The position numbers and the translations under genes are program-made. From Gammaproteobacteria bacterium (GTDB taxonomy: Bacteria > Pseudomonadota > Gammaproteobacteria > QZLD01), in contig JAWSVB010000014.1 of NCBI GenBank assembly GCA_033852135.1, positions 2,963 through 66,962 on the forward strand: a DNA stretch of 64,000 nt, read 5' to 3'. Shown one piece after another: positions 15,351 to 33,567 of this stretch. The notes under the pieces were generated by a model. The model did no database searches. It saw nothing but the letters and a program-made list of their open reading frames with translations, and had not been told where the DNA came from. Numbering within the stretch: the first letter of the stretch is position 1; each line of letters opens with the position of its first letter.

Positions 15351-16316
15351 TTAAAACTTTTTCACCAAACAGCTATCTTGGTCCAGATAAAAAACATCAA
15401 AATCACTAGCTAAAAACAGCCCACCACTAAAAGCATCTTTAGCCTCAACTTCTAAAGCAGTAATAGAGTTCTCTCCAGTACCAATATTATGAAAACGGGG
15501 GCTAAAGTGAGTCAGTACCAGGTTGCTGACAGATGCTTCCTGGGCAAATTCAGCAACTCTTTTTGCCGAACAGTGTTGGTACTCATTGCCTACTTTTTCC
15601 TCCACTTTGGCTGTATACGTAGCCTCATGTACTAAAACATCAATCTTCTCAGAGCATTCAGCAAGCAAAGTAGGGGTGTCATTATCTCCTGCAATAACAA
15701 CTTTGCGTGGTGACCTTCTTTCCAATAAATAATTATCGCAAATTAAAGCCTCACCACTTGGCAGCATTACATCCTCACCATCTTGCAGAAACCCCCAAAC
15801 CGGCCCCGGAGCAACCCCTTCTTTTTCAAGCTTTTCAATATCCAGCTTGCGCTCAATATTCTTCTCAATAAAACAAAAAGCAAAAGATGGGATAGTGTGC
15901 GATAGCTCCGTAATCTCTACCAAAAAATCATCAAACTCAAGCTGTTCGTCAACAGCTTCAATTTCAATAAATGTAATCTCAAATGAAAGGGTAAGCTTGG
16001 TTCCAGCCTGAACCCCTTTCAGAAACTCCTTAATAGCAGCAGGCGCAATAATGGTTAATGGCTCAGTTCTACCAAGCATAGAGGCACTAGCCAAAATACC
16101 AGGCAAACCATAACAATGGTCACCATGAATATGGGATATAAAAATAGCCTGCATATTCATTAAAGATAAATTCGTATGCAAAACTTGTTGCTGCGTACCT
16201 TCACCACAATCAACCAGATACCAAGCCTTAGCACTCGCCATCTTAATCGCAGCAGCAGCTACATTTCTTGATTTAGTGGGGGTACCAGCTGAGGTACCAA
16301 GAAAAACTAACTCCAT
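15351..16316 (-). CDS. rnz: ribonuclease Z / BN (metallo-beta-lactamase fold tRNA 3'-processing endonuclease)
   Basis: HIHGDHCYGLPG motif and overall ElaC/RNase Z length and organisation. Confidence 0.8.
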   Translation of the reverse strand: MELVFLGTSAGTPTKSRNVAAAAIKMASAKAWYLVDCGEGTQQQVLHTNLSLMNMQAIFISHIHGDHCYGLPGILASASMLGRTEPLTIIAPAAIKEFLKGVQAGTKLTLSFEITFIEIEAVDEQLEFDDFLVEITELSHTIPSFAFCFIEKNIERKLDIEKLEKEGVAPGPVWGFLQDGEDVMLPSGEALICDNYLLERRSPRKVVIAGDNDTPTLLAECSEKIDVLVHEATYTAKVEEKVGNEYQHCSAKRVAEFAQEASVSNLVLTHFSPRFHNIGTGENSITALEVEAKDAFSGGLFLASDFDVFYLDQDSCLVKKF

Positions 16317-16478
16317 AACAACCTTTTATATTGCATTTACCAAGTATCATTTAATCATATAACAAACATATAACTTTGCATTCTATTTCCTGTTATCTGG
16401 CTGAGGCGAATAAAGGTTTTTTGATAGTTTCCTATTTTAGGATGCCTTAGTTTATCAATGACTTAGTTGAAAGTTGAG

Positions 16479-16500
16479 ATTTTACATTCGAATGTAAAAT
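16479..16500. promoter_or_regulatory. perfect 22-bp palindrome ATTTTACATTCGAATGTAAAAT in divergent rnz / small-ORF-array intergenic region
   Basis: Exact reverse-complement symmetry, read directly. Candidate operator site. Confidence 0.3.
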
Positions 16501-16704
16501 TCATAGTGTATCGCAAGATGTTGATTGTTATGTAATTGCCTTTTTTAAAAGTTATAAAAAAGACAGAAATTGAAAGGTGGTTGGTAGATAAATTAGCTCT
16601 GTAGGGTGGGCACTGCCCACCAGATAAGGATATAACATATTTATCAAAAGTTACGTCATTTTATTATTCGTTATTTTAAGTAGTGTTGTAGCTTAATTCG
16701 TCAG

Positions 16705-16800
16705 CTTATTCATAATAAAAATCTAGTCAGTTTATGATTCTATTTATATGTTAGTCAATGTTTAATATACTGTCCTATATGACAAGTATATGGGGTGGGT
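16705..16800. repeat. intergenic repeat family copy R0 (diverged)
   Basis: Shares attcataat-aaaaa-t-tag and aagtatatgg blocks with the other copies. Lies upstream of ORF 16885. Confidence 0.4.
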
Positions 16801-16884
16801 ATCTTATGGTTTCTAGCGCGAGATTATGGAATAATTCACCCTTTTTTTTTGTTAATTTTTTATATTTTCTACTAAGGAATTAAG

Positions 16885-17391
16885 ATGAAAAAAATTCTAT
16901 CTTTTGTGTTTATAGCTTTAATTACTTTTAATGTAAATGCTCAGCAAACAGCATCGAAACAGTCAGTTGAAACATTAATGGAACTGACTGAAGTATCTAA
17001 AATGGTAGATACTATATATTCCCAAATAACCAATATGTTCAATGGTATGTCTGACCAGTTAGGAATTTCTAAAGAAGAAAAACCTGCATTTGATAAATAC
17101 ATGAATGAATTAACCATATTACTTAAAGAAGATATGGGATGGGATAAATTTAAGGGACCAATAATTGATATTTACGCAAAAAGATTAACTGAAACAGAGG
17201 TTCAGGGATTAATAAAATTTTATCGCTCAGATGCAGGTAAAAGCATGATTAAAAAAATGCCGTTAATCATGCAAGATTCTATGCTTGTCTCACAGGAAGT
17301 TATGAAAGAGTTTTTACCTAAAGTTAAGCTATTAGCAACACAAATGCAAAGTGAGATAAAAGAGCTACGCAAAAAGAAGAATGAAAAATAA
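16885..17391 (+). CDS. secreted DUF2059-like protein
   Basis: Signal peptide. Resemblance to DUF2059 is weak and recalled from memory. Confidence 0.45.
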   Translation: MKKILSFVFIALITFNVNAQQTASKQSVETLMELTEVSKMVDTIYSQITNMFNGMSDQLGISKEEKPAFDKYMNELTILLKEDMGWDKFKGPIIDIYAKRLTETEVQGLIKFYRSDAGKSMIKKMPLIMQDSMLVSQEVMKEFLPKVKLLATQMQSEIKELRKKKNEK

Positions 17392-17455
17392 ATTTATAGT
17401 TTTTGATGCACGATGTAATTAATTGTCGTTCTCTATTGATTATTTAGATAAGTAA

Positions 17456-17587
17456 GTAGTCTGCAAAATGCAATGACTTAAAACTTCATTGTATTTATAG
17501 TAAAAAAATGTAGACTCAGCGCATATGGGTGTTCATGTTAAATGAACAATTTTAAAAATAATGACTGGGGTCTAGTCAGAGTTAGAT
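17456..17587. repeat. intergenic repeat family copy R1
   Basis: gtagtctg..aaaac-tcattgtatt-ata-t-aaaaaaatgtag-...-gcatatgggtgttcatgttaaatgaac, with a cttcatt/aatgtag inverted repeat. GTTAGAT (GTTRRRY-like) at 17581. Confidence 0.5.
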
Positions 17588-17611
17588 TTTCAATTAAGAG
17601 GGGTTGGAAGT

Positions 17612-18139
17612 ATGGTTAATCTTTATGAAACACCAGATGCTAAATTAATAAATAGTAATTTTTCTCAAGATAGCTACATTAATTTTGATAGGTTTAGCAC
17701 ATGGGGGGTATTGGGCTTGTCTATCATAACTTTATCTTTTTACATGATTTATTGGATATATAAAAGGACATTGATATTGAATAAGCAGCCAGGAGTTACT
17801 CCAATTGGTGGTATGTTTATGGTGGTTGCTATTGTCTTATATATATTATCTTTTTTATTCATTATACCTGAAGCAATGTATCCATTGTCCCCAGAAGTAG
17901 TGCTTGTATCTCAGTTGGTTTCAATTTTCTCAAATATATTATTTTTAGTTTGGGCGTTTAAGTATAAAAACCGGTTGAATATTGTTTTGGATAATAGGGG
18001 GATTTCAATCAATCCTGTCAGCTCGATTATGACATTTTTTTTCCATGTTATATATTTGTCATATAAAACTAATGAGTATATGGATTGTTCAAATCATCAC
18101 ACTACTTCTATACAACCCATTGTTGAACCAGCTTCGTAG
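17612..18139 (+). CDS. hypothetical membrane protein
   Basis: Multiple TM helices; no motif recognised. Confidence 0.4.
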   Translation: MVNLYETPDAKLINSNFSQDSYINFDRFSTWGVLGLSIITLSFYMIYWIYKRTLILNKQPGVTPIGGMFMVVAIVLYILSFLFIIPEAMYPLSPEVVLVSQLVSIFSNILFLVWAFKYKNRLNIVLDNRGISINPVSSIMTFFFHVIYLSYKTNEYMDCSNHHTTSIQPIVEPAS

Positions 18140-18249
18140 ATTGGAATCAATGAGTCATTCAATAGGGTCATAGTTTTTGATTTGGTTGATAGGTACCGGT
18201 GGTTGTATTATTTTAATCGACTACCAGATCCTATTTTATTCTTCAGATA

Positions 18250-18305
18250 ATAAGTATCTAGTAAGAGGTAATTGTTCAAAGTATATGGATGTTCATAATT
18301 AATTC
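18250..18305. repeat. intergenic repeat family copy R2 (right-hand part only)
   Basis: caaagtatatggatgttcataattaatt matches the right end of R1 and R5. Confidence 0.4.
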
Positions 18306-18504
18306 CACTTTATTTAATTACTCGCTCGATATGCAAGCCACATATTATTCTTGATGTGACGTTGTCAGCTTTGTTTACATATTTTGTCCTAGTCACTTGT
18401 GAAAAAACTTTTTTATTTTAAAAAATAACACTATATGTTTTATGGCTTTATTTTTGCTTAAGAACTGGCGGACATTTTATAAATTTTACTCTAGGACATA
18501 AATA

Positions 18505-19110
18505 ATGAAAAAAATAGTTATTTTAGCTTTATTGCTATCTGTAGGAACTGCTAATGCAGGAATTATTGAATTAGGTGATTTTTCTGGCTCAGAAACAGTA
18601 ATTGATTTTAATGCTATATCTAATACAGAATCTGTTGCTAACCAATATTCTATTGATGGGGTTTTATTTAGTGGTGCGTTACTGGGGATGACAAATTCTG
18701 GCGATACAGCACTATTTAATGGCAGTACAATTGCTTCAAACTGGAACTACTCAGGTGGTGGCAATACTGGGCAAAGCTGGTCTGCAACTTTTGATTCAGT
18801 TCAAAACATTTTTGGTTTTTTCTCGGAAACTAATTCTAGCGATGATGTAACTATCGAAGCCTATTTGGGGACAGCATTAATTGGTACAGTAAATTTCTTG
18901 AACCCTAATGGCACATATCCAGATTTTCTTGGCTTTGGTGACTCTGGTGGCTTTGATAGTATTACAGTTACAATTGCAAAAAATGCTAACGGTTTTTTCG
19001 CAATGGATGATTTAAGATTTGAAAGTTTAAGAATACCTGAGCCAGGTTCTCTTGCTTTGCTTTGTTTAGGGATAGCAGGTGTTGGATTTTCAAGAAAAAA
19101 AATTGCTTAA
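18505..19110 (+). CDS. PEP-CTERM sorting-domain secreted protein (exosortase substrate)
   Basis: Signal peptide and C-terminal PEPGSLALLCLGIAGVGFSRKK (PEP motif, TM helix, basic tail). Confidence 0.75.
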   Translation: MKKIVILALLLSVGTANAGIIELGDFSGSETVIDFNAISNTESVANQYSIDGVLFSGALLGMTNSGDTALFNGSTIASNWNYSGGGNTGQSWSATFDSVQNIFGFFSETNSSDDVTIEAYLGTALIGTVNFLNPNGTYPDFLGFGDSGGFDSITVTIAKNANGFFAMDDLRFESLRIPEPGSLALLCLGIAGVGFSRKKIA

Positions 19111-19129
19111 TTAAAAATTAATCTACTTA

Positions 19130-19158
19130 AAAACCTCGGTGTTATACGGGGTTTTTTT
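19130..19158 (+). terminator. rho-independent terminator after the PEP-CTERM gene
   Basis: aaaaCCTCG-gtgttata-CGGGG followed by a T7 run. Confidence 0.55.
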
Positions 19159-19205
19159 GTGCCTGATAAAAATTATACTAGGGTATAAATAGATGGAGAG
19201 TAATT

Positions 19206-19610
19206 GTGAAATTTAGTGGGGTTGGTGTCTTTAAACATAAATTTAATAATCCAAATAAAATTACACAATTTGAAGAGCGTGTTGTTATGACTGAAGCCTC
19301 TTCATACGAAAAAGCATAAGAGCTTATTCTTGAGAATTTTAATGAATATGCAACTGATGCTGTTGAGTTTCTACATGTATATGAAATTGAAGAGATATAT
19401 CCAGAAAGTGAGGCGGTAATTGAAGTTGCGAGCGCAATGAAGGTTTTTGCAGGAACAGATGATGAATATATTGAAAGGTATTGGGGCGATCAAAAACCAT
19501 TAACATGTGAATCAAAAGGTTGGAAACACGTATGGTTTAATAGAGGCGAAGGCAAAAGCGGTTGTTATAATTGCCAAGAGGAACGTTTCGGTGAATTATG
19601 GGAGCTATAG
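19206..19610 (+). pseudogene. disrupted ORF (in-frame TAA at 19317-19319); product would be a ~134-aa protein of unknown function
   Basis: Continuous reading frame GTG19206..TAG19610 broken by a single stop. Absent from the ORF track because both pieces are under 60 aa. Confidence 0.35.
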
Positions 19611-19664
19611 TTAAGGTTATAGACGCTTAATTCAACATTTAATGCTTTCAAATAAGGAAATCAG

Positions 19665-19808
19665 ATGAATACAAAAGAATTATCTACATGTTTTTGTACA
19701 ACCGAAGTGGAATCGTGTCGTGAGTTCTATATAAAGTATTTTGCGGCCAAAGCTGTTTTTGATTGTGGTTGGTATGCTGTAGTGAAAATTAGTAAAAAGA
19801 TTTCATGA
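19665..19808 (+). pseudogene. 47-aa N-terminal remnant of a glyoxalase/VOC-family protein
   Basis: RBS and ATG are present. The N-terminal beta-alpha-beta-beta-beta pattern (EFYIKYFAAKAVFDCGWYAVVKI) resembles VOC proteins, but the frame stops after 47 aa. Confidence 0.3.
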
Positions 19809-19864
19809 AATCAGAGTCTTTGATTTTGCTCTGCGGTAATGGTTGTTTTTCAAACGACTGCCGA

Positions 19865-19980
19865 CCCCCATTGATTCCGCAGGTAATGAGTAGTCTGAAA
19901 TAGGCAACGATTTAAAACTACATTGTATTCATAATCAAAAAAATGTAGGTTTAACTCAAAGAGTTCACTTTTAATGAATT
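19865..19980. repeat. intergenic repeat family copy R3 (full length, ~115 bp)
   Basis: ccccattgattccgcaggtaatgagtagtctgaaataggcaacgatttaaaactacattgtattcataatcaaaaaaatgtaggtttaactcaaagagttcac, with a perfect ctacatt/aatgtag inverted repeat. GTTAGGC at 20021 lies just before the RBS of ORF 20041. Confidence 0.5.
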
Positions 19981-20040
19981 ATTATTATAAATAATTATGT
20001 TTGATTTGGATCAAATTATAGTTAGGCATAAGGAGATCTA

Positions 20041-20517
20041 ATGGAAATAACTCAAATAATTTTTGCTATAGTGATGGCCATAATTGGCTCTTTCATGGGG
20101 TTTTATATTACTCGTTTCTTAGAAAAGAGGCATCTTCCTAAAATAACAAAAGCTAGACAAAAAGCGATAAATGGCAAATGGGAAGGTACATATAAGCAAG
20201 ATGCAAATAAACACAGAGAGGAAAAAGCTCTTAAAATCGAGTTTATTCTAGAAGCTCTACCTAGAAAAATTATAGGTAAAATGATTGTAGAGGATGAAAA
20301 AAAGTACACTTTTTCAATAGAAGGCCCATTTTACCACAATAAATATTTAAGGTTAAACTATACAGCAAGCAACGAAACAGAGTTCGCAATAGATTTTGGT
20401 TCAATATTTCTTGTATTAGGAGATTACCCTGACACCATGGATGGCAAAATAGCTGGCTATGGATCTATGTCTAGAGCTTTAATATCTGGAAATGTCTCAA
20501 TCAAGAAAAATGCATAA
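20041..20517 (+). CDS. hypothetical protein with single N-terminal TM anchor
   Basis: Strong RBS AAGGAG; no recognisable motif. Confidence 0.4.
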   Translation: MEITQIIFAIVMAIIGSFMGFYITRFLEKRHLPKITKARQKAINGKWEGTYKQDANKHREEKALKIEFILEALPRKIIGKMIVEDEKKYTFSIEGPFYHNKYLRLNYTASNETEFAIDFGSIFLVLGDYPDTMDGKIAGYGSMSRALISGNVSIKKNA

Positions 20518-20610
20518 TATGTTAATTAACGACCGAGTGTTTGGTATGGGATTCAAAGCTGATACATGCTTTTTTCTCGGTTATGATAGGTATTATTTGT
20601 TTAATAGATT

Positions 20611-20919
20611 ATGAGTTATTTTGCTAATTTATGTAATAAACTAAGATTGAAATTATTCTATGTATTTGCGGGTTTAAGCTCAGTATTAGTAATGTTTTTG
20701 TTTTTACTATTACCTATGTATTTATTTCGCCAGTATTATGATATTCCACTGAGCACTAAAGGCCATGATGGGGAAATATGGTTTTTGATTATTGGTGGAA
20801 TCAATGGGGTCAGAGTCTTTGATTTTTCGCTTCGCTCAGAAATCAATACACTACTGACCCCAGTTGATTGCGCTGCTAATGAGCAGTTTGGAATAGATAA
20901 CGATTTAGGTCTATTTTGA
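20611..20919 (+). CDS. hypothetical small membrane protein
   Basis: Two TM helices. Its 3' end overlaps the left arm of repeat copy R4. Confidence 0.35.
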   Translation: MSYFANLCNKLRLKLFYVFAGLSSVLVMFLFLLLPMYLFRQYYDIPLSTKGHDGEIWFLIIGGINGVRVFDFSLRSEINTLLTPVDCAANEQFGIDNDLGLF

Positions 20920-20990
20920 GGCCTGATTATAGTCAGCCTATTTCTCATACTTCAGTTCTTTATCTCAAAGTAATACTATAGTGGTACAGT
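20858..20990. repeat. intergenic repeat family copy R4 (diverged full length)
   Basis: ccccagttgattgcgctgctaatgagcagtttggaatagataacgattta...gattatagtcag...caaag is collinear with R3 at about 75% identity. Confidence 0.45.
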
Positions 20991-21012
20991 TATCTAAACA
21001 TAGGTAAATTGC

Positions 21013-21156
21013 ATGAAAACCGAATTAGTTACCAACCTAGAAAAACAAACTACTAAACTTCTTGAAGGTATTGCAAAAGGTGAACAAGCAATAAGAGAAG
21101 GGCGAACTTTTACCAATGCTGAAGCTAAGGAAAAGCTTAAAAAGTGGCTTAAATAA
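21013..21156 (+). CDS. 47-aa hypothetical protein (coiled-coil, antitoxin-sized)
   Basis: ATG with an upstream AGGTAAAT; absent from the ORF track because it is under 60 aa. Call is speculative. Confidence 0.25.
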   Translation: MKTELVTNLEKQTTKLLEGIAKGEQAIREGRTFTNAEAKEKLKKWLK

Positions 21157-21312
21157 TTTGGGCTGACAAGAAAGAAAAATATATAATCAGTGAAGCTGAA
21201 AATGGTTAACACCGCAATCAACTATAGTGCTTTCTGCACTGAATCTTAAGTCGTTACGTACTTTTTACCGATTACTGCTGGCGTTAAATGACAAAAGGAA
21301 ATTGAGTAACAA

Positions 21313-21732
21313 ATGGAAACAAAAGAATTTCAAACAGAATGGTGCTTACTTCAGAATCAGTTCGATAGTTATGAAAAGCACTCACTGTATATAAAGTTAC
21401 TAAGTGTTATTGTTTTGTTGGCTGCAGAGGCTCTGGATGTAATTAATATTTTTATGTTGCTTATCTTGCTGGTGTTGTGGGTTCAAGATGCAATTTGGAA
21501 GACATTCCAATCACGTATAGAGCCAAGGCTATTGCAAATTGAAAAGTACATCTCGGAGGGAATAGGAGAGGGGAGCGAAAAGGGTGTATGTCAGTTCAAC
21601 ACTGAGTACCAAAAGGTTAGCTTAACTGGACTATCATTAATTATGGAATACGCTAAGCAATCAATTCGACCTACGGTAGCTTTCCCACATATAGTATTGG
21701 TACTGATTTTATTGGTTCAGTACGTACTTTAG
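21313..21732 (+). CDS. hypothetical membrane protein
   Basis: Two or three TM helices; no motif recognised. Confidence 0.35.
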   Translation: METKEFQTEWCLLQNQFDSYEKHSLYIKLLSVIVLLAAEALDVINIFMLLILLVLWVQDAIWKTFQSRIEPRLLQIEKYISEGIGEGSEKGVCQFNTEYQKVSLTGLSLIMEYAKQSIRPTVAFPHIVLVLILLVQYVL

Positions 21733-21809
21733 ACCGTAGGTTGCTGGTCTAGGATAGCTTGAATTGTTAGTTTTGATTTTACGCTTTCTTACTCATAGGT
21801 GAAGGTGAT

Positions 21810-22652
21810 ATGAATAATCAGGATATTAAGGTCGAATTAGGTCCAGTTCAAGAAACTTTGATGCTGCCTCTGTGGGCAAGGGCTAAAGAGGCAGAGAAAG
21901 ACAATCCCATCGTATCTGATACCTATGCTAAAAATATAGTTGAAAGTATCGATTATGATTTCTCACAGATTGAACAGAGTCATATGGCGGATAATCAGGG
22001 TGTATGGGCTATTCGCGCTTATAACTTTGATAATATAGTTAAACAATTTTTAGCTGATAACAGCAATGCTGTGGTTGTAAATTTTGGAGCAGGTTTAGAG
22101 ACCATGTTTCAGAGAGTTGATGATGGTAGTGTTCAATGGATTAATATCGACTTACCAGATGTAGTTGCTCTGCGACAGAAGCTAATTCCTGACTCAGAAC
22201 GGGAAATCACAATCGCTAAATCCATTTTTGATTTCACCTGGATTGACGATATATCTTCACTGACACAAGATCGCCCCATTATGTTCATTGCTTCTGGAGT
22301 ATTATGCTATTTTGAAGCTAGTGAGATCGAAACCCTGTTTCATAATCTTGCTGAAAATTATCCATCATCCCATGTTATTTTTGATTCTATGTCGTGGCTT
22401 CCAGCGTGGGGGTCAAACAGGGAAATAAAGAGAAGTATGAAAAATTCTAAAATGGATTCTTCAGCACTTATTAAGTGGCATCTGAAAAGAGCATCTGGCC
22501 TTAAAAAGTGGGTAGATACAATCAAAATAGTTGAAGAGTATCCTATGCTTTCGAAAGTGCCCGCCATAAATGATTTTAGTAAGAAAGAGATGTGGCAGAT
22601 TAAAATCGTAGCTCTGTTTCGCTTTTACAATATGATTCATGTGCAGCTTTGA
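21810..22652 (+). CDS. class I SAM-dependent O-methyltransferase (TcmP / leucine-carboxyl-methyltransferase-like family)
   Basis: N-terminal ETLMLPLWARA motif and a VVNFGAGLET SAM-binding motif I. Confidence 0.65.
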   Translation: MNNQDIKVELGPVQETLMLPLWARAKEAEKDNPIVSDTYAKNIVESIDYDFSQIEQSHMADNQGVWAIRAYNFDNIVKQFLADNSNAVVVNFGAGLETMFQRVDDGSVQWINIDLPDVVALRQKLIPDSEREITIAKSIFDFTWIDDISSLTQDRPIMFIASGVLCYFEASEIETLFHNLAENYPSSHVIFDSMSWLPAWGSNREIKRSMKNSKMDSSALIKWHLKRASGLKKWVDTIKIVEEYPMLSKVPAINDFSKKEMWQIKIVALFRFYNMIHVQL

Positions 22653-22692
22653 AAAAGCCTGCTTACAAAACAATATGAATAGATCTGGACTA

Positions 22693-23046
22693 TTATTTCT
22701 TCAGCAAATCTTTGAGATTGGCAAATGGATTGTGCGTAGCGACAGATTCAGGTTTATCCTCTCCTGGATTACCAGTTGAATTCATAAATTTCATGTGTTC
22801 CTCTTCATGGCAGTAGGTACAAAGTAACTCCCAATTACTGCCGTCAGCTGGATTATCATCATGGTCGCAGTTTTTGTGGTGTACCTCCAGCTCAGTTAAG
22901 TTGCTGCGTTCAAATGCGCGTGAACAGCGGCCACAAACCCACGGGAATAATTTGAGAGCCTGCTCTCTATACCCTTTGGCACGTAAATCGGCATTCTGCC
23001 GGGCTTCAAGAACCACATTATCCAGTTTACTGCTGTCTTTAGTCAT
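22693..23046 (-). CDS. yajD: HNH nuclease-family protein YajD
   Basis: KALKLFPWVCGRCSRAF...ELEVHH...DGSNWELLCTYCHEEEH closely matches E. coli YajD, including the zinc-finger cysteines and the HNH histidines. Confidence 0.8.
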   Translation of the reverse strand: MTKDSSKLDNVVLEARQNADLRAKGYREQALKLFPWVCGRCSRAFERSNLTELEVHHKNCDHDDNPADGSNWELLCTYCHEEEHMKFMNSTGNPGEDKPESVATHNPFANLKDLLKK

Positions 23047-23172
23047 GCTTTGCCTTTTTTAAATTGAAGAATCATTAAATTTAATATTTTAATACCTACA
23101 CAAAGAGGCGATTAAGTCTGTTTACTGTTAACAATTATAAACCATAAAAAGTACTAAAATATAATTTCAATG

Positions 23173-23200
23173 TTGACACAATTATTCATCAGAGTAATAT
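23173..23200 (+). promoter_or_regulatory. sigma70-like promoter (TTGACA-N16-TAATAT) driving the rtcB leader
   Basis: Consensus -35 hexamer at 23173-23178 and a near-consensus -10 at 23195-23200. Confidence 0.4.
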
Positions 23201-23242
23201 ACGCCGAAATTTCACATCAACTCATATGTTAGGAGGTAATCA

Positions 23243-23269
23243 ATGCAAAAACAGGTAAACAAAATATAA
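23243..23269 (+). CDS. 8-codon leader ORF (MQKQVNKI) with consensus SD AGGAGG
   Basis: AGGAGGT sits 6 nt upstream of the ATG and a TAA stop follows 8 codons. Located inside the rtcB leader. Confidence 0.3.
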   Translation: MQKQVNKI

Positions 23270-23320
23270 AACCTCCCCAGAAAAAATTCTGATTGGGAGG
23301 CTCAGCCTTCTAATCACAAG

Positions 23321-23353
23321 ACCCTGATTAGCTTTGGCTGTCAGGGTTTTTTT
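23321..23353 (+). terminator. intrinsic terminator / attenuator hairpin immediately upstream of rtcB start
   Basis: ACCCTGA-N12-TCAGGGT followed by T7. It is preceded by an SD / anti-SD / anti-anti-SD triplet: AGGAGG 23231, CCTCCCC 23272, GGGAGG 23295. Confidence 0.55.
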
Positions 23354-23376
23354 ATGGGTCAGAATTAGGAATTATT

Positions 23377-24570
23377 ATGCCAGTTTATATGGAACTAAAT
23401 AAGGGGGAAGTTCCGGTAAAAATTTACACTGATGAGATTGAATCAGAAGCGATAGATCAACTTATCAAGGTATCTCAATTACCGTTCATTCACTCACATA
23501 TCGCAGCAATGCCTGATGTGCATAGCGGCAAAGGTGCGACGATAGGAAGTATTATCCCAACAAAAGGAGCGATTATACCTGCTGCTGTTGGCGTGGATAT
23601 TGGATGCGGAATGCAGGCTGTTAGGCTTAACATGAAGCGTAAATACCTGCCTAAGAAGCTTGCTAAGTTGCGTGCCTCGATCGAGGATCTTGTACCAATT
23701 GGGTTTACTATGAACCAACCGGGAAATGCGCATAAAAAAGCGTGTAAGGATCTTGATGCAAGGCTAGATGCGATAGTAAAAAAGCACCCAGAATTGATGA
23801 AGATGGTAAAAAATCTTCCGCAAACTTGGGTTTGCCAAATGGGTACCTTAGGTGGTGGTAACCACTTTATAGAGGTGTGTATTGACCAGCAAGATTCAGT
23901 TTGGATTATGCTGCATACAGGGAGTCGCGGCCTTGGTAATGCAATGGGGAGATATTTTATCTCTCTTGCCAAGCGCAATATGCCTGCGGAAGTAAATCTG
24001 CCAAATAAAGATCTAGCTTACTTTACCGAAGGGACAGAGCTTTTTGATGATTATGTTGAGACAGTTTTATGGGCTCAGGATTATGCCAAAACCAATCGAG
24101 ACGTAATTATGCAAGAGGTACTGTCAGCTGTTGATAAGAGCTCATCCTATCACCAATTAAAAAGTAGCATTATTGACTGCCATCATAACTATGTGGCGCA
24201 GGAGACCCACTTTGGTGAAAAGGTTTTTGTTACTCGTAAAGGTGCAATTCGCGCTGCTAAAGGTGAGGTTGGAATTATCCCCGGTAGCATGGGGGCAAAG
24301 TCTTTTATTGTAGAAGGGATAGGCAACGAGGATTCTTTTCAATCATGCTCCCATGGAGCAGGTAGAAAGATGAGCCGTAGTAAGGCAAAAAGGTCTTTCA
24401 CCAAAAAGGATCTTGAAGCACAAACCAAAGGTATTGAATGCCGTAAGGACAAAGATGTTTTAGATGAGATTCCAAGCGCATATAAAAATATCGATTCGGT
24501 GATGAAGAAACAAAGCGACTTGGTTGAAATCAAATACACCTTAAAGCAGGTTATTTGTATTAAAGGGTAA
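23377..24570 (+). CDS. rtcB: RNA-splicing ligase RtcB (3'-phosphate/5'-hydroxyl RNA ligase)
   Basis: Conserved RtcB motifs: DVHSGKG, GGGNHF, HNY..Q, SHGAGR; ~400 aa. Confidence 0.9.
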   Translation: MPVYMELNKGEVPVKIYTDEIESEAIDQLIKVSQLPFIHSHIAAMPDVHSGKGATIGSIIPTKGAIIPAAVGVDIGCGMQAVRLNMKRKYLPKKLAKLRASIEDLVPIGFTMNQPGNAHKKACKDLDARLDAIVKKHPELMKMVKNLPQTWVCQMGTLGGGNHFIEVCIDQQDSVWIMLHTGSRGLGNAMGRYFISLAKRNMPAEVNLPNKDLAYFTEGTELFDDYVETVLWAQDYAKTNRDVIMQEVLSAVDKSSSYHQLKSSIIDCHHNYVAQETHFGEKVFVTRKGAIRAAKGEVGIIPGSMGAKSFIVEGIGNEDSFQSCSHGAGRKMSRSKAKRSFTKKDLEAQTKGIECRKDKDVLDEIPSAYKNIDSVMKKQSDLVEIKYTLKQVICIKG

Positions 24571-24612
24571 GTTAACAAATATACAACCAACAAAAAACCA
24601 AAAGGAAAGACA

Positions 24613-24867
24613 ATGAAATATAGAAACCATGTAGCGCAAAACCCATTGCTTAGAAAGGGTGGGGCGCATCAAAAATCACGCAGTTCGCAGCGTTCTAGCA
24701 ACAGGCGCAAGCTTAACTCATATCTTGATGAATGGTATGAAGATGAGCATAACGAAAAAAGCGATAATAAAGGGATTAAAGAGGAGCAGGATAGCTCCTC
24801 TTTTTTTGCCATTTATTTAGCTAATTCTTCATATGATAGCTACATAAAAAATCTGCTTATTTCGTAG
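24613..24867 (+). CDS. small basic protein, possibly an ArfA-like alternative ribosome-rescue factor
   Basis: The N-terminal 35 aa (NPLLRKGGAHQKSRSSQRSSNRRK) resemble the hydrophobic-P-L-F-R-x-R plus K/R-rich core of ArfA. The call is weak. Confidence 0.25.
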   Translation: MKYRNHVAQNPLLRKGGAHQKSRSSQRSSNRRKLNSYLDEWYEDEHNEKSDNKGIKEEQDSSSFFAIYLANSSYDSYIKNLLIS

Positions 24868-24887
24868 GTAATAAAGGTTTTATATTA

Positions 24888-24968
24888 GATTGCTACATTA
24901 AAATAATATTGTATTGATTATAAAAAAAATGTAGATTCAAAGCATATGGGCGTTCACGATAAACGAAT
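24888..24968. repeat. intergenic repeat family copy R5
   Basis: gctacattaaaataatattgtattgattataaaaaaaatgtagattcaaagcatatgggcgttcacgataaacgaa, with a perfect ctacatt/aatgtag inverted repeat. Confidence 0.5.
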
Positions 24969-25041
24969 TATTATATAAAGATTTAGATTCCATTTTAACT
25001 CCTAATTATTGATAGATATTTAGTTACTAATTGAGAAAAAT

Positions 25042-25530
25042 ATGTTGATTCAAATATTAAAGCACACACCAATTTGGGTATTTTGCCTTTTCTTTATTCT
25101 GCTGTCTCTAGGGTTTTTACAAAGTAAAACTAGAACGGTCAATAGACGCAGAGTTATTACTATCCCTTGTGCCATGTTGGTCTTATCATTTTTTGGCGTT
25201 ATTTCAGCATTTGGTCCAATATATGCTGGGCTACTTGCTTGGTTTATAGGTATAACTGCTGCCAGTTGGTTAGGTTTTAAGCTTGGGATCATTAAAGGGG
25301 TCACCTATTCAAAGGAAAACCAGACTTTTTTAATCCCAGGTAGCTGGATACCATTTATATTAATGATGGCTCTATTTTTTACAAAATACGCGGTTAATGT
25401 GTTGCTAGCCCTACAGCTTACTATTGTGCAAAGCGCAGAGTTTATTGCTGTGGTTAGTTGCCTTTACGGGTGCTTCAGTGGATTATTTTTTTCTCGCTTA
25501 TTAGTTATAAGAAGAGCGATTAATAAATAG
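25042..25530 (+). CDS. hypothetical membrane protein (4 TM)
   Basis: Hydrophobic profile only. Confidence 0.4.
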   Translation: MLIQILKHTPIWVFCLFFILLSLGFLQSKTRTVNRRRVITIPCAMLVLSFFGVISAFGPIYAGLLAWFIGITAASWLGFKLGIIKGVTYSKENQTFLIPGSWIPFILMMALFFTKYAVNVLLALQLTIVQSAEFIAVVSCLYGCFSGLFFSRLLVIRRAINK

Positions 25531-25664
25531 ATATAAGTAATGCCCAATATCAGCTTAAGCCATTTTGTATCAGGAAATAAATATTTAAACCACGAGCGTT
25601 AACAACAGGTGGTGCTTGGTATAGAAACTTTACTACTTACTGCAATTAATAGGAGAAACAGATA

Positions 25665-26099
25665 GTGAAAACACTAGCAACGATAGCGGCTACTTTTGTA
25701 ATAGGGGTAGCTTCAACACATATCTACGCCGGAGAATATAACTTTAAACCTGGATTGTGGGAAACAACCACAACAATAGAGGTAAAAGGTGTTCCTGCTA
25801 ATATGGCAGCAATGATGAAAGTTCCACCTCAAACTGAGCAGGAATGTATTAAAAGCACAGATCCCATATTTGAATCTGATGAAGAGTGTAAGTTTAAAAA
25901 AACACGTGTTAGTGCAAATAAAATACTGGTTGATGTTACATGCACTGAATCAGAAATGGTGATGAAAGGAAAAGGTGAGATGAACTTCAACGGAAAAACT
26001 ACATCTGGCTGGTTTGAAATGAAAGTACCCCAAGGACCAGCAGGTCCAATGAAAATGAAAAACAAATTTGAAGGTAAGTATCTAGGGCCTTGTAAATAG
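25665..26099 (+). CDS. secreted DUF3617-like protein
   Basis: Signal peptide and a PGLWE motif near the N-terminus of the mature protein. Confidence 0.45.
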   Translation: MKTLATIAATFVIGVASTHIYAGEYNFKPGLWETTTTIEVKGVPANMAAMMKVPPQTEQECIKSTDPIFESDEECKFKKTRVSANKILVDVTCTESEMVMKGKGEMNFNGKTTSGWFEMKVPQGPAGPMKMKNKFEGKYLGPCK

Positions 26100-26198
26100 A
26101 TATCAAATGTTTCCATTAAAGTTCAGTGCGATTCTGCGCTGAACTTGAAGTTAAGCCTTACTTATTTATCCACTTATTTAAACCTCATAAGGTAAAAC

Positions 26199-26582
26199 AT
26201 GATCCAAATTTACGGTATTAAAGAAAATCTAAACCCAATTAAGGCAAAACTGTCTGATGTAATCAATCTGTGTATGGTTGATGCTTTATCGTTTCCTGAT
26301 AATAAGCGTGCACATAGATTTATTCCTATGGAAAAAGAAGATTACTTTTATCCAGAGGGCCGTTCTGATGCATATATGGTAATTGAAATTTCACTAATGA
26401 GTGGCCGTTCAGTTGAGGCAAAGAAAAATCTTATCCATTTGCTATTTCAACGTATTGAATCAACCCTTGGTATTGCTCCTATAGATGTTGAAATTACAAT
26501 CTCTGAATCACCGGCAAGTAATTGGGGCTTTAGAGGTATTACTGGTGATGAAGCAAAATTGAATTATAAGGTAGATGTATAG
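26199..26582 (+). CDS. hypothetical protein, possibly tautomerase-superfamily-like
   Basis: Weak resemblance only (beta-alpha-beta, ~125 aa). Confidence 0.25.
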   Translation: MIQIYGIKENLNPIKAKLSDVINLCMVDALSFPDNKRAHRFIPMEKEDYFYPEGRSDAYMVIEISLMSGRSVEAKKNLIHLLFQRIESTLGIAPIDVEITISESPASNWGFRGITGDEAKLNYKVDV

Positions 26583-26602
26583 TAAGTATATTTATTATGT
26601 GA

Positions 26603-27373
26603 TTAATAATCTTGATAACGATCCATTATTAAATCGTATGTACCATTTTCACGTATTATTTTAAGGCCTTGGTTAAAGTCATCACGAATCTTTTCTAACT
26701 TAAAAACAAAAGAATATTTTGTTGGAGGAAAGATTGTATGCATTTTTACTTTGCGCCTTTGCTCCTCAGGTAATAACTTTGCTTTGCCTAGCGCATTTCT
26801 TAAGTGGAATAAAAAAACTCTTTTATCCGAAATCAACACATCTACCCGTTTTTTCAATAGGATAACAGCATGTAAACTTTGGTCTGAGATCTCAAGATAA
26901 TTTTTATTTTCTGTTGCAACCTGTGCGAACTCATCCCCGAGAAACTTTGAAGCATTTTGAAAAGCTAGAACAGTAAACTTGCTATCTTTCAGGTCAATAA
27001 TGTTATTAATAGAAAAATTATTATCTTCTAAACTAATTGCTACATTCTGAAATGATATGACATCATCACTGTAATACCCCAAAAGCAGTGAATCTTTTTT
27101 TACATTAATTGCGCCATCTAATTTACCCTCTTCAAAGAATGATAATGTTCGAACATTAGGTAAATATCTAATCTTTACTGTATGGCCTTTTATCGCGAAA
27201 GCTGCTCTCAATATATCTATTTCAATACCTGAATCGCTATCCTGGATAACATATGGAGGCAGGGAAAATCCAACCCCTATAGTTATCTCATCGGCTAATA
27301 CGGTGTTTATAAATAACATATTGAGCACAAATAAAAGTGAATAAGATATAGACATGGCTTTTGTTCTAATCAT
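26603..27373 (-). CDS. periplasmic solute-binding-like protein (paralog family of ORF 305..1243)
   Basis: Signal peptide. N-terminal ITIGVGFSLPPYVI...GIEIDILRAAF is typical of SBP family 3. Confidence 0.55.
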   Translation of the reverse strand: MIRTKAMSISYSLLFVLNMLFINTVLADEITIGVGFSLPPYVIQDSDSGIEIDILRAAFAIKGHTVKIRYLPNVRTLSFFEEGKLDGAINVKKDSLLLGYYSDDVISFQNVAISLEDNNFSINNIIDLKDSKFTVLAFQNASKFLGDEFAQVATENKNYLEISDQSLHAVILLKKRVDVLISDKRVFLFHLRNALGKAKLLPEEQRRKVKMHTIFPPTKYSFVFKLEKIRDDFNQGLKIIRENGTYDLIMDRYQDY

Positions 27374-27649
27374 TCACTTTTCCTTAGGTGCAGGTCGAAT
27401 TGATTGTTGTAATGCTAGTATTAAATATAGCGCAAAAAAGTTTGAAATGCCTTGTTAACAATAAGTTAAAGATGGTGCTTTAAAAAAATATTTGGATTGT
27501 TAACTAGTGTAATGAATGGATTTGTTGCGTAGGGGAAGATAAATATAAAGAGGGGGCGTGAACTAATAAGGCAAGTATCAATTAAAAGATATTTGCCTTA
27601 TTAAGATATATACCAGGAGTGGATAAAATTAAATCAATATATGGTCAGA

Positions 27650-28753
27650 CTATTTGCAGGCCTGAGCTTCTTGGTTAACTTTATCTAGTATTGCAAAAAC
27701 TTCTAAGCTATTTTCTTCAATTACTTTGAAAGCATTAAATAGAGCAGTGTAATCTAACGGTTTCTTGTCAATTAACTCAAATACGCTGTGTGTGCCGTTA
27801 TGTACAACAGAATGAGGACGATCTAATAATTTAAATGATGGATTAGATGAGAAGAATTCCTTTCCATCCCCTTCAAAATACCATTTGCCCAGGCGGCAAT
27901 TATGATGGTCAACAAAGTCGAAAGCAGGTTTCTTTTTATTTACTGAAAGGTAAGTATTGGTTTTCCAAAGTAAGTGGTCAAGCTTTGCTAAACTCATAAA
28001 TACTGTATCCGATACATTTGCAATATCAGAGAAATGAGCAGCTACTTCTTCATTAATATTTTTTACACCACTTTGCAGATTCTCAGATACTTCGCTTATG
28101 TTAGTAACTGTACTCCACACTGTTTGAGAATCAGTTGATACCGACGAAACATCCCCTTGCATCGCTACAATTACATCATTAGTTTCAGTAATTGCTAACT
28201 GTGTTTTATCTGCAAGCCCACGTACTTCCTCAGCAACTACAGCAAAACCTCTTCCTTGTTCTCCTGCCCTGGCTGCTTCAATTGCCGCATTCAAAGCAAG
28301 TAAATTAGTTTGTTCAGCAATGCCCTTAATCAAGTTAAGAATAGAGCTTATCTCTTCAGCCCTAGCTGACATAGATTCAACTGACTGACTTGATTGCTGG
28401 GCTACCGATTCTAGCCCCTTAAGCCCAGAGCTCATATCAGCGATCTGCTGATTAAGAGAGGTAAAGTCACTTTGAATAGAGCCGATACACTGTAGTATGT
28501 GTTTGGCAGAATTTACTGAATCAGCTAGATTTTGCTGGATATCAGTTAAGCAAATTTTGCTGTTATCATTCTGATATCCCATGAGTTTATTAAGTTGTTC
28601 TTCTTTAGGATTAACTTGGGATAAATTTTGCAGCTGCTGTTTAGTTTTATCCAGTTCATCTTTGAGAGCAGAGTTTTCTGATTTTAGAGTTGAGTTTTCA
28701 TGTTTAAGCTTTTCAAGCTCTATCTTTGTTTTTCCAAAATCAAATAAACTCAT
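27650..28753 (-). CDS. soluble methyl-accepting chemotaxis-like protein with C-terminal CZB (chemoreceptor zinc-binding) domain
   Basis: MCP signalling motif [31 protein letters not shown], then C-terminal [13 protein letters not shown] and HSVVH (H-x3-C-x-L-G-K-W CZB signature). No TM segments. Confidence 0.75.
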
Positions 28754-28918
28754 AGCTACTCCAATTATTATTATAAAATAAATTTCCTATTAGCTTTTCT
28801 TATATGGACTCTTTATTTTTTAATAGAAAGCTAGGCATTATGATTATAGGATAAAATAATAATAACTCTACATAATAGTAATGAAGGCAAAATTCTTAAT
28901 TAAGCTAAGGAAACACAA

Positions 28919-29209
28919 ATGACAAAATTAACAATCATCGCGAACATAACTGCTAAAGAAGGCAAAATTGATTTAGTTAAATCTGAGCTTATAAAATTAA
29001 TTGATGTAACTCGTGCTGAAGATGGGTGTATAAATTATGATTTGCATCAGGATATTCAAAACCCAGCTCACTTTATGTTTTACGAAAACTGGGAGACTCG
29101 TGAGCTTTGGGAAAAGCATATGGGTAACCAGCACCTAAAAGATTACTTGGCTGCCACAGATGGAGCAGTTGCAGAATTCACAGTTAATGAGATGACAGAA
29201 GTATTGTAG
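28919..29209 (+). CDS. antibiotic-biosynthesis-monooxygenase (ABM) domain protein
   Basis: 96 aa with a ferredoxin-like ABM pattern. Confidence 0.7.
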   Translation: MTKLTIIANITAKEGKIDLVKSELIKLIDVTRAEDGCINYDLHQDIQNPAHFMFYENWETRELWEKHMGNQHLKDYLAATDGAVAEFTVNEMTEVL

Positions 29210-29385
29210 TTTGATTATCTCTAAATAGTTGCAAATACACCTGGATGTAAACGCTCTGTTTTTATATAAATAACAGAGCTATGCCAGATGCAGCTATCTC
29301 ATGTATGCTTTTAATTATGTAAAGAGTTTTGTCTGGATATAGGTGGTATATATCTGTTCGTAAATATATTAAAGATGGGGTTTAA

Positions 29386-29862
29386 ATGTTTAGTAATAGA
29401 TCTTTTATAGAAAAAGATGCAGGCATTATTGTAGAGTTTCCACAGTCGAAAGATGAGCTTTTTTATATGTTTCCAAAAGCTGACTTTCCTCTACAACCTG
29501 AAACTCTTATCAAACAATCAAAATTACGATTTTCTCCGACCGTCGTATTATTTAATGATGATGTGGTAGGTTATGGAAATTTTATATGCGTTAAGTATGG
29601 GGATTTTTGTTCGATTGGTAATATAGTTGTAAACCCGCTACTACGTAGAACAGGTATTGCTACTTATCTTATTGGAACCATGTTGGGAATGGCCTTTAAA
29701 AAGCAAAATGCTAAATATGTACAAATTTCATGTTTTAGTCAGAATACCAGTGGTTTGCTTTTGTATAAGAAGCTTGGCTTTGCATCTTATGAAATTGAAT
29801 CAAGAGAGAAGCATAATGGTAAGCAGGTTGATCTAATTCATATGCGTAGATATATGGCATAG
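29386..29862 (+). CDS. GNAT family N-acetyltransferase
   Basis: Motif A region VVNPLLRRTGIATYLIG. Confidence 0.6.
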   Translation: MFSNRSFIEKDAGIIVEFPQSKDELFYMFPKADFPLQPETLIKQSKLRFSPTVVLFNDDVVGYGNFICVKYGDFCSIGNIVVNPLLRRTGIATYLIGTMLGMAFKKQNAKYVQISCFSQNTSGLLLYKKLGFASYEIESREKHNGKQVDLIHMRRYMA

Positions 29863-29966
29863 TTTATTCAAAGTTACACACAACAAAAAAGTGAGGGTGA
29901 TTTTTTTGGTTGTAACTATCGATTATGTAATAATCGTACGATGTTAAATTTATACAAGGACAAGAA

Positions 29967-30404
29967 ATGAGAACAATAGGGAATATACTCTGGTTTATAT
30001 TAGGTGGATTTGTAATGGGGTTGGCTTGGTGTTTTTTTGGGCTTATAGCGTATATAAGTATTGTCGGTATACCATGGGGAAGATCTTGTTTTGTTATAGC
30101 CGGTTTTTCATTTTTTCCATTTGGAAAAGAAGCTATATCTCGTGATGAATTAACCCAGACTAAAGATATAGGAACAAGTGGTTTTGGAACCTTGGGTAAT
30201 ATCATTTGGTTTGTTTTTGCTGGCTTGTGGTTAGCGATAGGGCATATATTATCTGCAGTAGCATGTTTTATTACAATTATTGGTATCCCTTTTGGGTTGC
30301 AACACTTAAAACTTGCAGGGGTTTCTTTAGCTCCTATTGGTAAAACAGTAGTTACTAAAGAAGTTGCAGCAGCTGCTCGTATTGCGAATATAGTAAAACC
30401 GTAG
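29967..30404 (+). CDS. yccF: inner membrane protein YccF (DUF307)
   Basis: MRTIGNILWFILGGF...RSCF...GNIIWFVFAGLWLAIGH...IIGIPFG is collinear with E. coli YccF. Confidence 0.8.
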   Translation: MRTIGNILWFILGGFVMGLAWCFFGLIAYISIVGIPWGRSCFVIAGFSFFPFGKEAISRDELTQTKDIGTSGFGTLGNIIWFVFAGLWLAIGHILSAVACFITIIGIPFGLQHLKLAGVSLAPIGKTVVTKEVAAAARIANIVKP

Positions 30405-30444
30405 TATTTCCTAAGTTGCTAGTTGGCGCTACAATAACGCCATC

Positions 30445-30831: not shown

Positions 30832-30913
30832 GGTCAAAATTTATATCTATATATTTATCCTGCTACTGTGAAAAACAACGTTTTAGCTGGGATAATATTT
30901 ATTAGGAATAAAA

Positions 30914-31261: not shown

Positions 31262-31397
31262 TTTAGATTATTTAAAAAACATCATTGATTTTAGTAACTA
31301 TTTGTTGAGAATATCAGCATTTAATGATATTTTGTTGACTAGTGTTCATTATAGTTTGTCGATTCTATTTATTTAAGTGTTATACCAAGGGATAAAA

Positions 31398-33531: not shown

Positions 33532-33567
33532 AGATATATGCCAGCTTTTTTTATATGGAGATAACTA

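Follow-up and report, generated by a model that had tools for sequence, protein, structure and literature searches.

The minimal mobile elements (MMEs) of Neisseria are islets that are swapped by homologous recombination in conserved flanks. Correia elements, also of Neisseria, repetitive extragenic palindromic (REP) sequences and bacterial interspersed mosaic elements (BIMEs) are short, AT-rich, partly palindromic repeats that lie between genes; they carry WATCAA-like motifs, resembling the core of the site for integration host factor (IHF), and can affect expression. Putative mobile promoters (PMPs), a further class, are defined operationally as stretches of 50 nt or longer, at least 80% identical, that precede, within one genome, genes unrelated in their coding sequences and in their upstream neighbours (Matus-Garcia, Nijveen & van Passel 2012; PMC3488235), and toxin-antitoxin and accessory modules flanked by dif-like sites are also known (PMC6449649). 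Here we describe a locus that resembles each of these systems, and integron arrays, in some respects. It lies in a stretch of 64,000 nucleotides from a gammaproteobacterium (contig JAWSVB010000014.1), referred to below as the window, and its distinguishing element is a non-coding repeat unit of ~170-240 bp, present in five copies (three complete, two partial) upstream of unrelated small genes. In our opinion, there is about an even chance that this unit is a re-used promoter/leader module of the PMP type, copied locally inside a plasticity islet driven by recombination. An earlier sequence-only reading of the same DNA had likened the locus either to an integron cassette array or to a region seeded by miniature inverted-repeat transposable elements (MITEs).

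Copies and anatomy of the repeat unit

A direct-repeat search, a six-way alignment and nhmmer profile searches of the window place all five copies on the + strand, within 8 kb, and the nhmmer profile finds no further copy elsewhere in the window. The full copies match at 17428-17588 (R1, E 1.8e-37), 19863-20028 (R3, E 1.1e-40) and 24851-25018 (R5, E 1.4e-38). The match to R4 (20857-20907, E 6.6e-7) covers only A, the 5′ part of the unit; that to R2 (18235-18288) has an E-value of 0.37, and models of parts A and B match there at consecutive positions with E-values of 0.04 and 5, respectively. The sequence-only reading had counted six copies, R0 to R5, each upstream of an ORF in the same orientation. 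The orientation and the position, promoter-proximal to unrelated genes, hold for the five copies retained, two of them only partial; R0 (16693-16735, + strand) was rejected as a family member, being 65% identical over 43 nt and giving no profile match at E≤20.

The distribution of the unit was scanned with a 20-base pattern common to all full copies. Among 185,579 species, each represented by one genome, the only true matches are two sites on one contig (JAWSVA010000012.1) of a related metagenome-assembled genome (MAG), that of a deep-sea Gammaproteobacterium from a biofilm on PHBH plastic (PMC10817984). The same pattern has no true match in 241 M metagenome records or in the IMG/VR viral contigs. 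Further relatives were found through the cluster of RtcB proteins. Nucleotide identity to the window is 97-98% in locus L066, 97.9% in L056 and, over the shared parts, 95% in L057; it is ~86% in L067 and L068 and 75-87% in the related MAG (loci L001 and L013). More distant RtcB loci (L058-L065, 84-86% amino-acid identity) have no repeat and quite different neighbourhoods. Every relative of the clade (L056, L066, L013 of the MAG, L067 and L068) has a copy at the R5 position, and the other copies occur only in the lineage of the window and L066, apart from one (Q1) in the MAG. In the window and the collections scanned, the unit is thus limited to one small clade and, inside that clade, to this locus.

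Comparison of the copies with one another and with the relatives divides the unit into four parts, in the order H (hairpin), A (spacer), B (core) and C (leader). H is a long hairpin that begins a few nt past the stop codon of the upstream gene. Its best copy, at 20799-20869, reads AATCAATGGGGTCAG...CTGACCCCAGTTGATT; it is an imperfect hairpin of 71 nt with outer arms AATCAA/TTGATT and a folding energy, as DNA, of -19 kcal/mol (z -6.2 on the + strand, z -5.0 on the - strand). The H-type pattern is found 7 times against 1.4 expected, and H is intact at only two places within the window. The second of these, GAATCAA..CAGAGT..GTTGATTC at 34111-34164 on the + strand (z -3.7), lies downstream of a RibD_C-like gene without A, B or C, and its inner stem differs from that of the 20799 copy yet is complementary. 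A is a spacer of ~45 nt, ATTGATTCCGCAGGTAATGAGTAGTCTG...CAACGATTTA; the stops in all three frames that it contains are not significant, their chance probability in AT-rich DNA being ~0.3 by a rough estimate. B comprises ~90 nt, the first 59 nt of which form a conserved core with the consensus TTAAAAyAATATTGTATTsATwATmAAAAAAATGTAGATTCAAmrCATATGGGyGTTCA. C is a leader of 30-45 nt, whose 3′ end, (A)GTTAGRY, lies 7-24 nt before the downstream start codon; in R5 and its orthologue in the MAG this end reads GATAGA instead. The heptamers GTTAGAT at 17581 and GTTAGGC at 20021, pointed out in the sequence-only reading as integron-core-like, are both present and coincide with the 3′ boundary of the repeat; at this boundary L067 has GTTAGGT and the MAG has GTTAGCA. 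In the window, the starts reached after these 7-24 nt are those of the DUF4234 gene, a 158-aa ORF and the DUF6622 gene; in the relatives the units end before a 121-aa ORF (L067) and a Phd operon (MAG).

Among the orthologous R5-position units of three lineages (the window, the MAG and L067), the 59-nt core of B is 88-97% identical, compared with 65-84% for the spacer before A, 67-86% for A, 73-82% for the B tail and 67-76% for C; the RtcB coding sequence is 89.5-94.8% identical. Since the core is 88-97% identical against 65-86% in the neighbouring non-coding DNA, it is, judged from these identities, under sequence constraint or subject to concerted evolution.

The individual copies differ in completeness. 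R1 (17392-17588) fills the entire intergenic region between the DUF2059 and DUF4234 genes: a degenerate H remnant (17392-17427) is followed by A (17428-17480), B (17480-17565) and C, which ends in AGTTAGAT, and the DUF4234 ATG is at 17612. The decayed R2 (18145-18302) retains an H remnant (AATCAATGAG..GGTCATAGTTTTTGATT), A and, of B, only the 3′ part (GTATATGGATGTTCA); the missing 5′ part is the palindromic one, and the deletion junction lies at an internal direct repeat, GATTYAAA. R3 (19811-20028) consists of a truncated H, A, B without the CATATGGG block, and C ending in AGTTAGGC, and is followed by the ATG of the 158-aa ORF at 20041. In R4 (20799-20937), which is 74% identical to R3 over 76 nt of the 5′ part, H is intact (20799-20869), B is absent and A is fused directly to C at GATTTAG; the left end of this copy is the exact point at which the 99-aa gene of L066 breaks off. 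R5 (A, B and C; 24849-25018) lies between an 84-aa ORF and the DUF6622 gene, with its B core (TTAAAA..ATTGTATT..AAAAAAATGTAGATTCAA..CATATGGGYGTTCA) at 24898-24956. All these copies are on the + strand. The gcatatggg(t/c)gttca block, which the earlier reading had placed in each copy, can be recognized in R1 and R5 and, in degenerate form, in R2, but not in R3 or R4. Three internal direct repeats, CGATTTAAAAC, AGATTCAAAGC and AGATTTAGR, sit exactly at the junctions of R2 and R4; R2, which has lost the hairpin half of B, and R4, which has lost all of B, are for this reason most simply explained as deletions. In R1 alone, all three of the internal repeats read GACT rather than GATT.

Gene turnover and breakpoints at the locus

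The slot between rnz and the 139-aa ORF, HNH and RtcB genes has a different gene content in each of five related genomes, as expected of the gene-acquisition hotspot that had been proposed. In the window, it holds genes for DUF2059, DUF4234 and a PEP-CTERM protein, a pseudogene, a VOC fragment, the 158-aa ORF, a chimeric 102-aa ORF and a Phd fragment. L066 has the same content, but YkuD replaces the pseudogene, the 99-aa gene is intact, and R4 and the Phd fragment are absent. The slot contains YkuD, an intact VOC gene and an intact Phd-ParE pair in L057; an SBP, a PLD/NgoFVII-like (DrmC-like) nuclease, a 143-aa ORF and HigBA in the MAG; and two SBPs, an 877-aa LmuB-like SMC ATPase and others in L067. 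Insertions and deletions of single genes go on beyond the array, to ~35 kb (26103-35434). Thus, the tautomerase-SBP-MCP segment (26.1-28.9 kb) and a 153-aa ORF (32289-32882) are absent from the MAG, and a GNAT gene (29212-29953) and a 128-aa ORF (30398-30929) are absent from L066, which is 97% identical to the window. No unit lies close to any of these.

The breakpoints are heterogeneous. Three of them coincide with edges of the unit or of its parts: window and L066 diverge at 20798/20799, the exact left edge of H; L067 diverges from the window directly after AGTTAGG; and the MAG does so at the start of C. In L057 the breakpoint is inside H. Others lie inside genes (VOC, DUF6622 and the 99-aa gene), and the rearrangement junctions show microhomology. 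Such heterogeneity fits illegitimate and homologous recombination rather than the action of one site-specific enzyme.

Close analogues in this respect are the MMEs, in which, as here, different genes fill one slot between conserved flanks (in our case rnz and the 139-aa ORF/HNH/RtcB genes) and there are no dedicated mobility genes. The slot differs from an MME in that an intergenic module recurs inside it and in the many genes that have decayed there.

Two further observations concern the flanking genes. In L057, Phd-ParE is flanked by duplicated 51-bp copies of the start of the 139-aa ORF (positions 1176-1226 and 1925-1975), and this arrangement suggests that Phd-ParE was inserted, with duplication, into the 5′ end of that gene. 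In the distant loci L058-L065, a trio of HNH, RtcB and a small ORF is kept as a block; the neighbourhoods differ by clade, and the upstream neighbour of the trio varies (a radical SAM gene in L058, GFA in L060).

Candidate roles of the unit

By the operational definition given above, the family counts as a PMP. R1 and R3 are 85% identical over 60 nt, and R1 and R5 are 81% identical over 57 nt; the flanking proteins give no match at E<0.1 in an all-vs-all blastp comparison, and their Pfam families all differ. Moreover, as in PMPs, the conservation reaches to within a few nt of the start codon, and the family is small. The unit departs from PMPs in being longer and composite, and promoter activity is only putative here, as it is for most PMPs (PMC3488235).

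The locus is best explained as an islet, extending from rnz to ~35 kb, in which recombination adds, replaces and erodes single genes and toxin-antitoxin or defence modules. Within it, one lineage-specific intergenic module would have been copied locally to several positions, in constant orientation and directly upstream of unrelated genes. H probably serves as a 3′ end or insulator for the upstream gene. B is most likely regulatory DNA bound by a protein (a promoter or operator), or else the beginning of a 5′ leader that the genes share, and C would be the leader that reaches the ribosome-binding site; the module would in this way give expression signals to whichever gene sits downstream. The 100-240-bp direct repeats may in turn offer homology for RecA-type recombination, by which genes between copies would be added or removed, and the copies would decay by deletion between the internal direct repeats. 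The direct copies would then contribute to the gene turnover of the islet, without being required for it.

Several findings weigh against this interpretation. Matches to sigma-70 promoters are weak, only R1 reaching 9/12 (ATGACT-17-TATAGT), and the region contains 38 promoter-like sites compared with 44 expected from shuffled sequences. The copies sit within one variable locus of 8 kb, whereas PMPs are usually scattered in the genome. Most of the indels of the islet between 26 and 35 kb have no unit nearby, which indicates that the repeats are not required for the variability. B is still conserved in the MAG, in which the downstream DUF6622 gene is a stub, and B may therefore serve something other than DUF6622. 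Finally, the one-sided changes in two small hairpins of the unit are compatible with G-U pairing on the + strand, which leaves room for a role at the RNA level. By-eye comparisons with the sigma-54, sigma-32, sigma-E, Fur, ArgR, ArcA, parS and IHF consensuses gave partial, non-conserved matches, and these candidates were dropped as unsupported.

We consider it unlikely that the units are functionless debris, left over from segmental duplication and illegitimate recombination in a decaying region. Two of the five copies are deletion derivatives, genes next to the copies are truncated, the junctions show microhomology and a 51-bp duplication is found in L057, all as this explanation would have it. 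It does not account for a B core that is conserved like the RtcB coding sequence, next to non-coding DNA with identities down to 65-75%, or for the retention of the R5-position copy in all relatives of the clade.

It is rather unlikely, too, that the unit is a functional RNA, either a shared cis-regulatory 5′ leader that would contain two small hairpins and an upstream ORF of 6-10 codons (MGVHVK), or a small RNA of the minus strand, which would end at the hairpin CCTGC..GCAGG-T7 of the MAG and L067. The CTACATT/AATGTAG hairpin, described in the sequence-only reading as conserved in every copy, is perfect in R3 only; R1 has one mismatch, the left arm is displaced in R5, and the relatives read CAATATT/AATGTAG at this position. 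Six distinct copies were compared for this hairpin and for a second one, GTTCA/TGAAC. Five one-sided substitutions in the two hairpins retain pairing via G-U on the + strand, but no pair shows a compensatory double change. The substitutions in ATG GGY GTT CAY fall at third codon positions, but no Shine-Dalgarno sequence precedes this mini-ORF, and R3 lacks it. On the minus strand, the R5-position unit contains a promoter-like match (TTAAAA-17-TATAAT, 10/12), and L067 and the MAG have a terminator-like hairpin followed by a T-run; R1 and R3 have no such terminator, and in the R5 of the window it is weakened. On neither strand do the units have a folding energy better than that of shuffled sequences (z -0.3 to +1.6). 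In scans with Rfam 15, a tRNA at 52341 is the sole match in the window, and the 16.3-26.6 kb region, the units included, has nothing credible at the gathering threshold or even at E≤5. This lack of an RNA structure signal in the units points to a role of B at the level of DNA, i.e., to protein binding.

The mini-ORF of the B core (ATG GGY GTT CAY..) is read as MGVHVK* at 17525-17545, as MGVHDKRIII* at 24946-24978 and as MDVHN* at 18285-18302; where the copies differ, the change affects a third codon position or exchanges K and R. On reading the sequences, no type I toxin-antitoxin system or small hydrophobic ORF was seen inside the unit.

A site-specific role of the host Xer recombinases appears improbable. 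According to this hypothesis, the CATATGGGYGTTCAYGTTAAAT block of B is a dif-like XerC/XerD site at which Xer integrates and excises the genes between the repeats. The 28-mer TCAGCGCATAT-GGGTGT-TCATGTTAAAT (17516-17543, + strand), inside B of R1, has the 11+6+11 layout of such sites and, with 17/22 arm positions, is the best match to Escherichia coli dif among all 128,000 28-mers of the window. A weaker homologous site is located at 24937-24964 (+ strand) in R5. The copies other than R1 score 14-15/22, however, a value reached by ~30 chance sites in the window, and R3 has no site. The outer XerD arm, invariant in gammaproteobacterial dif (PMC3025954), varies among the orthologues (GATAAAC, GTTAAAT, GTTAGAT), as opposed to the conserved TTATGTTAAAT. 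In the inner palindrome of the R1 site (CATATG vs TTCATG), 3/6 positions are complementary as read by eye, compared with the more than four pairs between positions 7-12 and 17-22 required by the criterion that accompanies the dif reference sequences (PMC3025954). The genome junctions lie at either end of C and at the edge of H, none of them in or beside the 28-mer or its 6-bp centre, and no such site is found in viral contigs. The absence of a GC-skew switch, together with the uniform direction of four octamers resembling the FtsK-orienting polar sequences (KOPS), all on the + strand, indicates that the locus is not the chromosome terminus. The resemblance to the arrays of integrative mobile elements exploiting Xer (IMEX) at dif and to the pdif modules of Acinetobacter (PMC6449649), in which small accessory and toxin-antitoxin modules also lie between 28-bp 11+6+11 motifs, is offset by the poor conservation of the XerD arm here, by the position away from the terminus and by junctions located elsewhere; in addition, pdif modules are bounded by inverted sites, whereas all of the sites here are direct.

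It is equally improbable, in more general terms, that the direct repeats are recombination sites of an integrase-less chromosomal cassette system, in which host recombinases would move single genes together with an expression module. Candidates for the recombinase would be XerC/D, with the dif-like 28-mer as the site, and a different enzyme that uses the (A)GTTAGRY edge or the GATTYA repeats.

There is little probability, likewise, that the unit is a non-autonomous transposable element (a MITE, a Correia-like or a REP/BIME-like element) with an outward promoter, inserted repeatedly. At 170-240 bp, AT-rich, with a palindromic segment and a position upstream of genes, it has the appearance of one. 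B is flanked by short direct repeats, GACT.. in R1 and GATT.. in the other copies, and R4 and R2, lacking B and its palindromic half, respectively, resemble empty sites. These GATTTA-type repeats were considered as target-site duplications; with a third copy of the motif inside the unit, slippage deletion between internal direct repeats explains R2 and R4 equally well. The ends of the unit, ATTGATTCCGCAGG... and ...ATTATAGTTAGG, are not inverted repeats, the sole palindrome being internal. All copies are in one orientation within 8 kb, the strict pattern matches the related MAG at this locus alone and gives nothing in other genomes, metagenomes or viral contigs, and no transposase is found among the scanned ORFs of the window. 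Correia, REP and BIME sequences share the short, AT-rich, intergenic character, the palindromic parts and the WATCAA-like (IHF-core-like) motifs; they differ from the units, which have no terminal inverted repeats and no consistent target duplication, keep one orientation and are not dispersed. The absence of terminal inverted repeats and the confinement to one locus argue against a generic scattered MITE; of the earlier proposal of a MITE/REP-like element with a portable promoter in a hotspot, the hotspot and the promoter-proximal position next to unrelated genes remain. A GC-rich REP-like palindrome, TAGGGTGGGCAnTGCCCACC, occurs in intergenic regions of the clade (window 16605-16625, L001 at 639 and 1732, L067 at 59).

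Least of all do we expect the locus to be a chromosomal integron array or a cluster of attC sites lacking integron-integrases (CALIN), with the repeats or the H hairpins as attC sites and the integrase encoded elsewhere. The likeness to such arrays, which the sequence-only reading had proposed, consists in small, unrelated, co-directional ORFs with toxin-antitoxin genes or their remnants, in strain-variable content, in repeats in several intergenic regions, and in units that end, where the similarity between copies stops, in a GTTRRRY-like heptamer (GTTAGRY). H at 20799-20869, a 71-nt imperfect hairpin with conserved outer arms and a differing, complementary inner stem in its 34111 counterpart, adds to it. 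However, a search of 16.3-35.4 kb on both strands for complementary RYYYAAC/GTTRRRY (R″/R′) pairs (at least 6/7, 50-160 nt apart) gives 0 compared with 1.9 expected, and the A+B+C units form only small local hairpins, without the end-to-end fold of attC. The left arm of H ends in AAT or AAA rather than AAC; H has a 1x2 internal loop instead of an unpaired central spacer, is intact at two places only, and is followed by ~170 nt of conserved sequence, unlike a cassette boundary. The breakpoints are imprecise, falling inside genes, at the left edge of H or inside H and not at the G|TT core, and only that between L067 and the window coincides with a GTTAGG edge; moreover, most of the intergenic regions here have no repeat. 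No integrase, tyrosine recombinase or transposase is found among the scanned window ORFs of at least 110 aa, in agreement with the earlier remark that intI is missing from the window, nor is any found among the called genes of the 21-kb L066 and L067 loci. Co-directional small ORFs, intergenic repeats and GTTRRRY-like heptamers can thus mimic an integron array, which calls for caution.

A second intergenic repeat, ..CAATCAACCATCGCRCCTYTGGC..GCGTTAAAT, is found in L067 at 5905, 6385 and 8680, and once in the window (21207-21290), upstream of the 139-aa ORF. This repeat (CAATCAACCATCGC... in L067) and the region upstream of the 139-aa ORF were considered as attC candidates and rejected, their folds being no better than those of shuffled sequences.

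Gene content, neighbouring features and significance

The array is flanked on the left by rnz (15351-16316, - strand) and on the right by the SBP gene (26603-27373, - strand). From 16.9 to 26.6 kb the + strand carries 15 ORFs or their remnants, in keeping with the ~15 small co-directional ORFs reported earlier, and the - strand carries one gene, encoding an HNH protein (22693-23046); this gene and the RtcB gene (23377-24570) were missing from the earlier list. Pfam families are assigned to these two and to the genes for DUF2059 (16885-17391), DUF4234 (17612-18139), a PEP-CTERM protein (18505-19110), an LCM-type methyltransferase (21810-22652), DUF6622 (25042-25530), DUF3617 (25665-26099) and a tautomerase (26199-26582), all of these, and the RtcB gene, on the + strand. 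Several further ORFs of the array match no Pfam family.

Four short ORFs of the window are gene fragments or pseudogenes, since the relatives carry intact versions; the partial decay suspected from the sequence alone is thus borne out and can be specified. All four are on the + strand. The pseudogene at 19206-19595 is a homologue of a 135-aa ORF found intact in L067, to which tblastn aligns it in a single frame (64.6% identity, 130 aa); it has in-frame stops, no intact ORF crosses it, and 19207-19610 contains 5 stop codons. The VOC/glyoxalase fragment (19665-19808) comprises the N-terminal 45 codons of a gene of 131 aa, intact in L057. The chimeric ORF (20611-20919, 102 aa) takes codons 1-63 from the 99-aa gene, matching the L066 membrane protein at 98% (tblastn), and its remaining codons read through H and A of unit R4. 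The fourth (21013-21156) is a remnant of a Phd/YefM antitoxin gene, identified by tblastn, from which the ParE toxin gene has been deleted; its counterpart in L057 encodes intact Phd (85 aa) and ParE (103 aa).

Several features of the region stand outside the repeat family. The ACCGAG..CTCGGT hairpin noted earlier is present after the 158-aa ORF, at 20532-20581 on the + strand, with a spacer of 38 rather than 36 nt. Upstream of rtcB, at 23215-23360, there is a conserved leader with a strong Shine-Dalgarno sequence and a short ORF (ATG CAA AAA CAG GTA AAC AAA ATA TAA), longer in L058 and L060 than in the window, followed by a CCTCCC/GGGAGG stem and then by an intrinsic terminator, AAGACCCTG...CAGGGTTTTTTT, just 5′ of the rtcB start. 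This arrangement is retained in both RtcB clades with one compensatory pair, matches no Rfam family and looks like a transcription-attenuation leader. The spacer between rnz and the DUF2059 gene contains a perfect 22-bp palindrome, ATTTTACATTCGAATGTAAAAT (16477-16502); at the equivalent place the MAG has GATTGTCCCTTCGAAGGGACAATTC, the stem being changed on both sides and the hairpin retained. The TACATT/AATGTA palindrome at 16483 was considered as an operator related to the repeat and rejected because the stem of the MAG is compensated there and has a different sequence. Farther away, the ORF at 60244-61380 encodes a PHB-depolymerase-type esterase (Pfam Esterase_PHB), which is consistent with the origin of the related MAG in a biofilm on deep-sea PHBH plastic.

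The wider significance of these results is modest, the element being confined to a small clade of deep-sea Gammaproteobacteria. Nevertheless, the 59-nt core of B, conserved like the adjacent RtcB coding sequence and belonging to no known family, is a defined target for study. If the unit is indeed a locally copied promoter/leader module, the locus would be a compact natural case of newly acquired or shuffled islet genes gaining expression signals, and it would show such repeats feeding further recombination.

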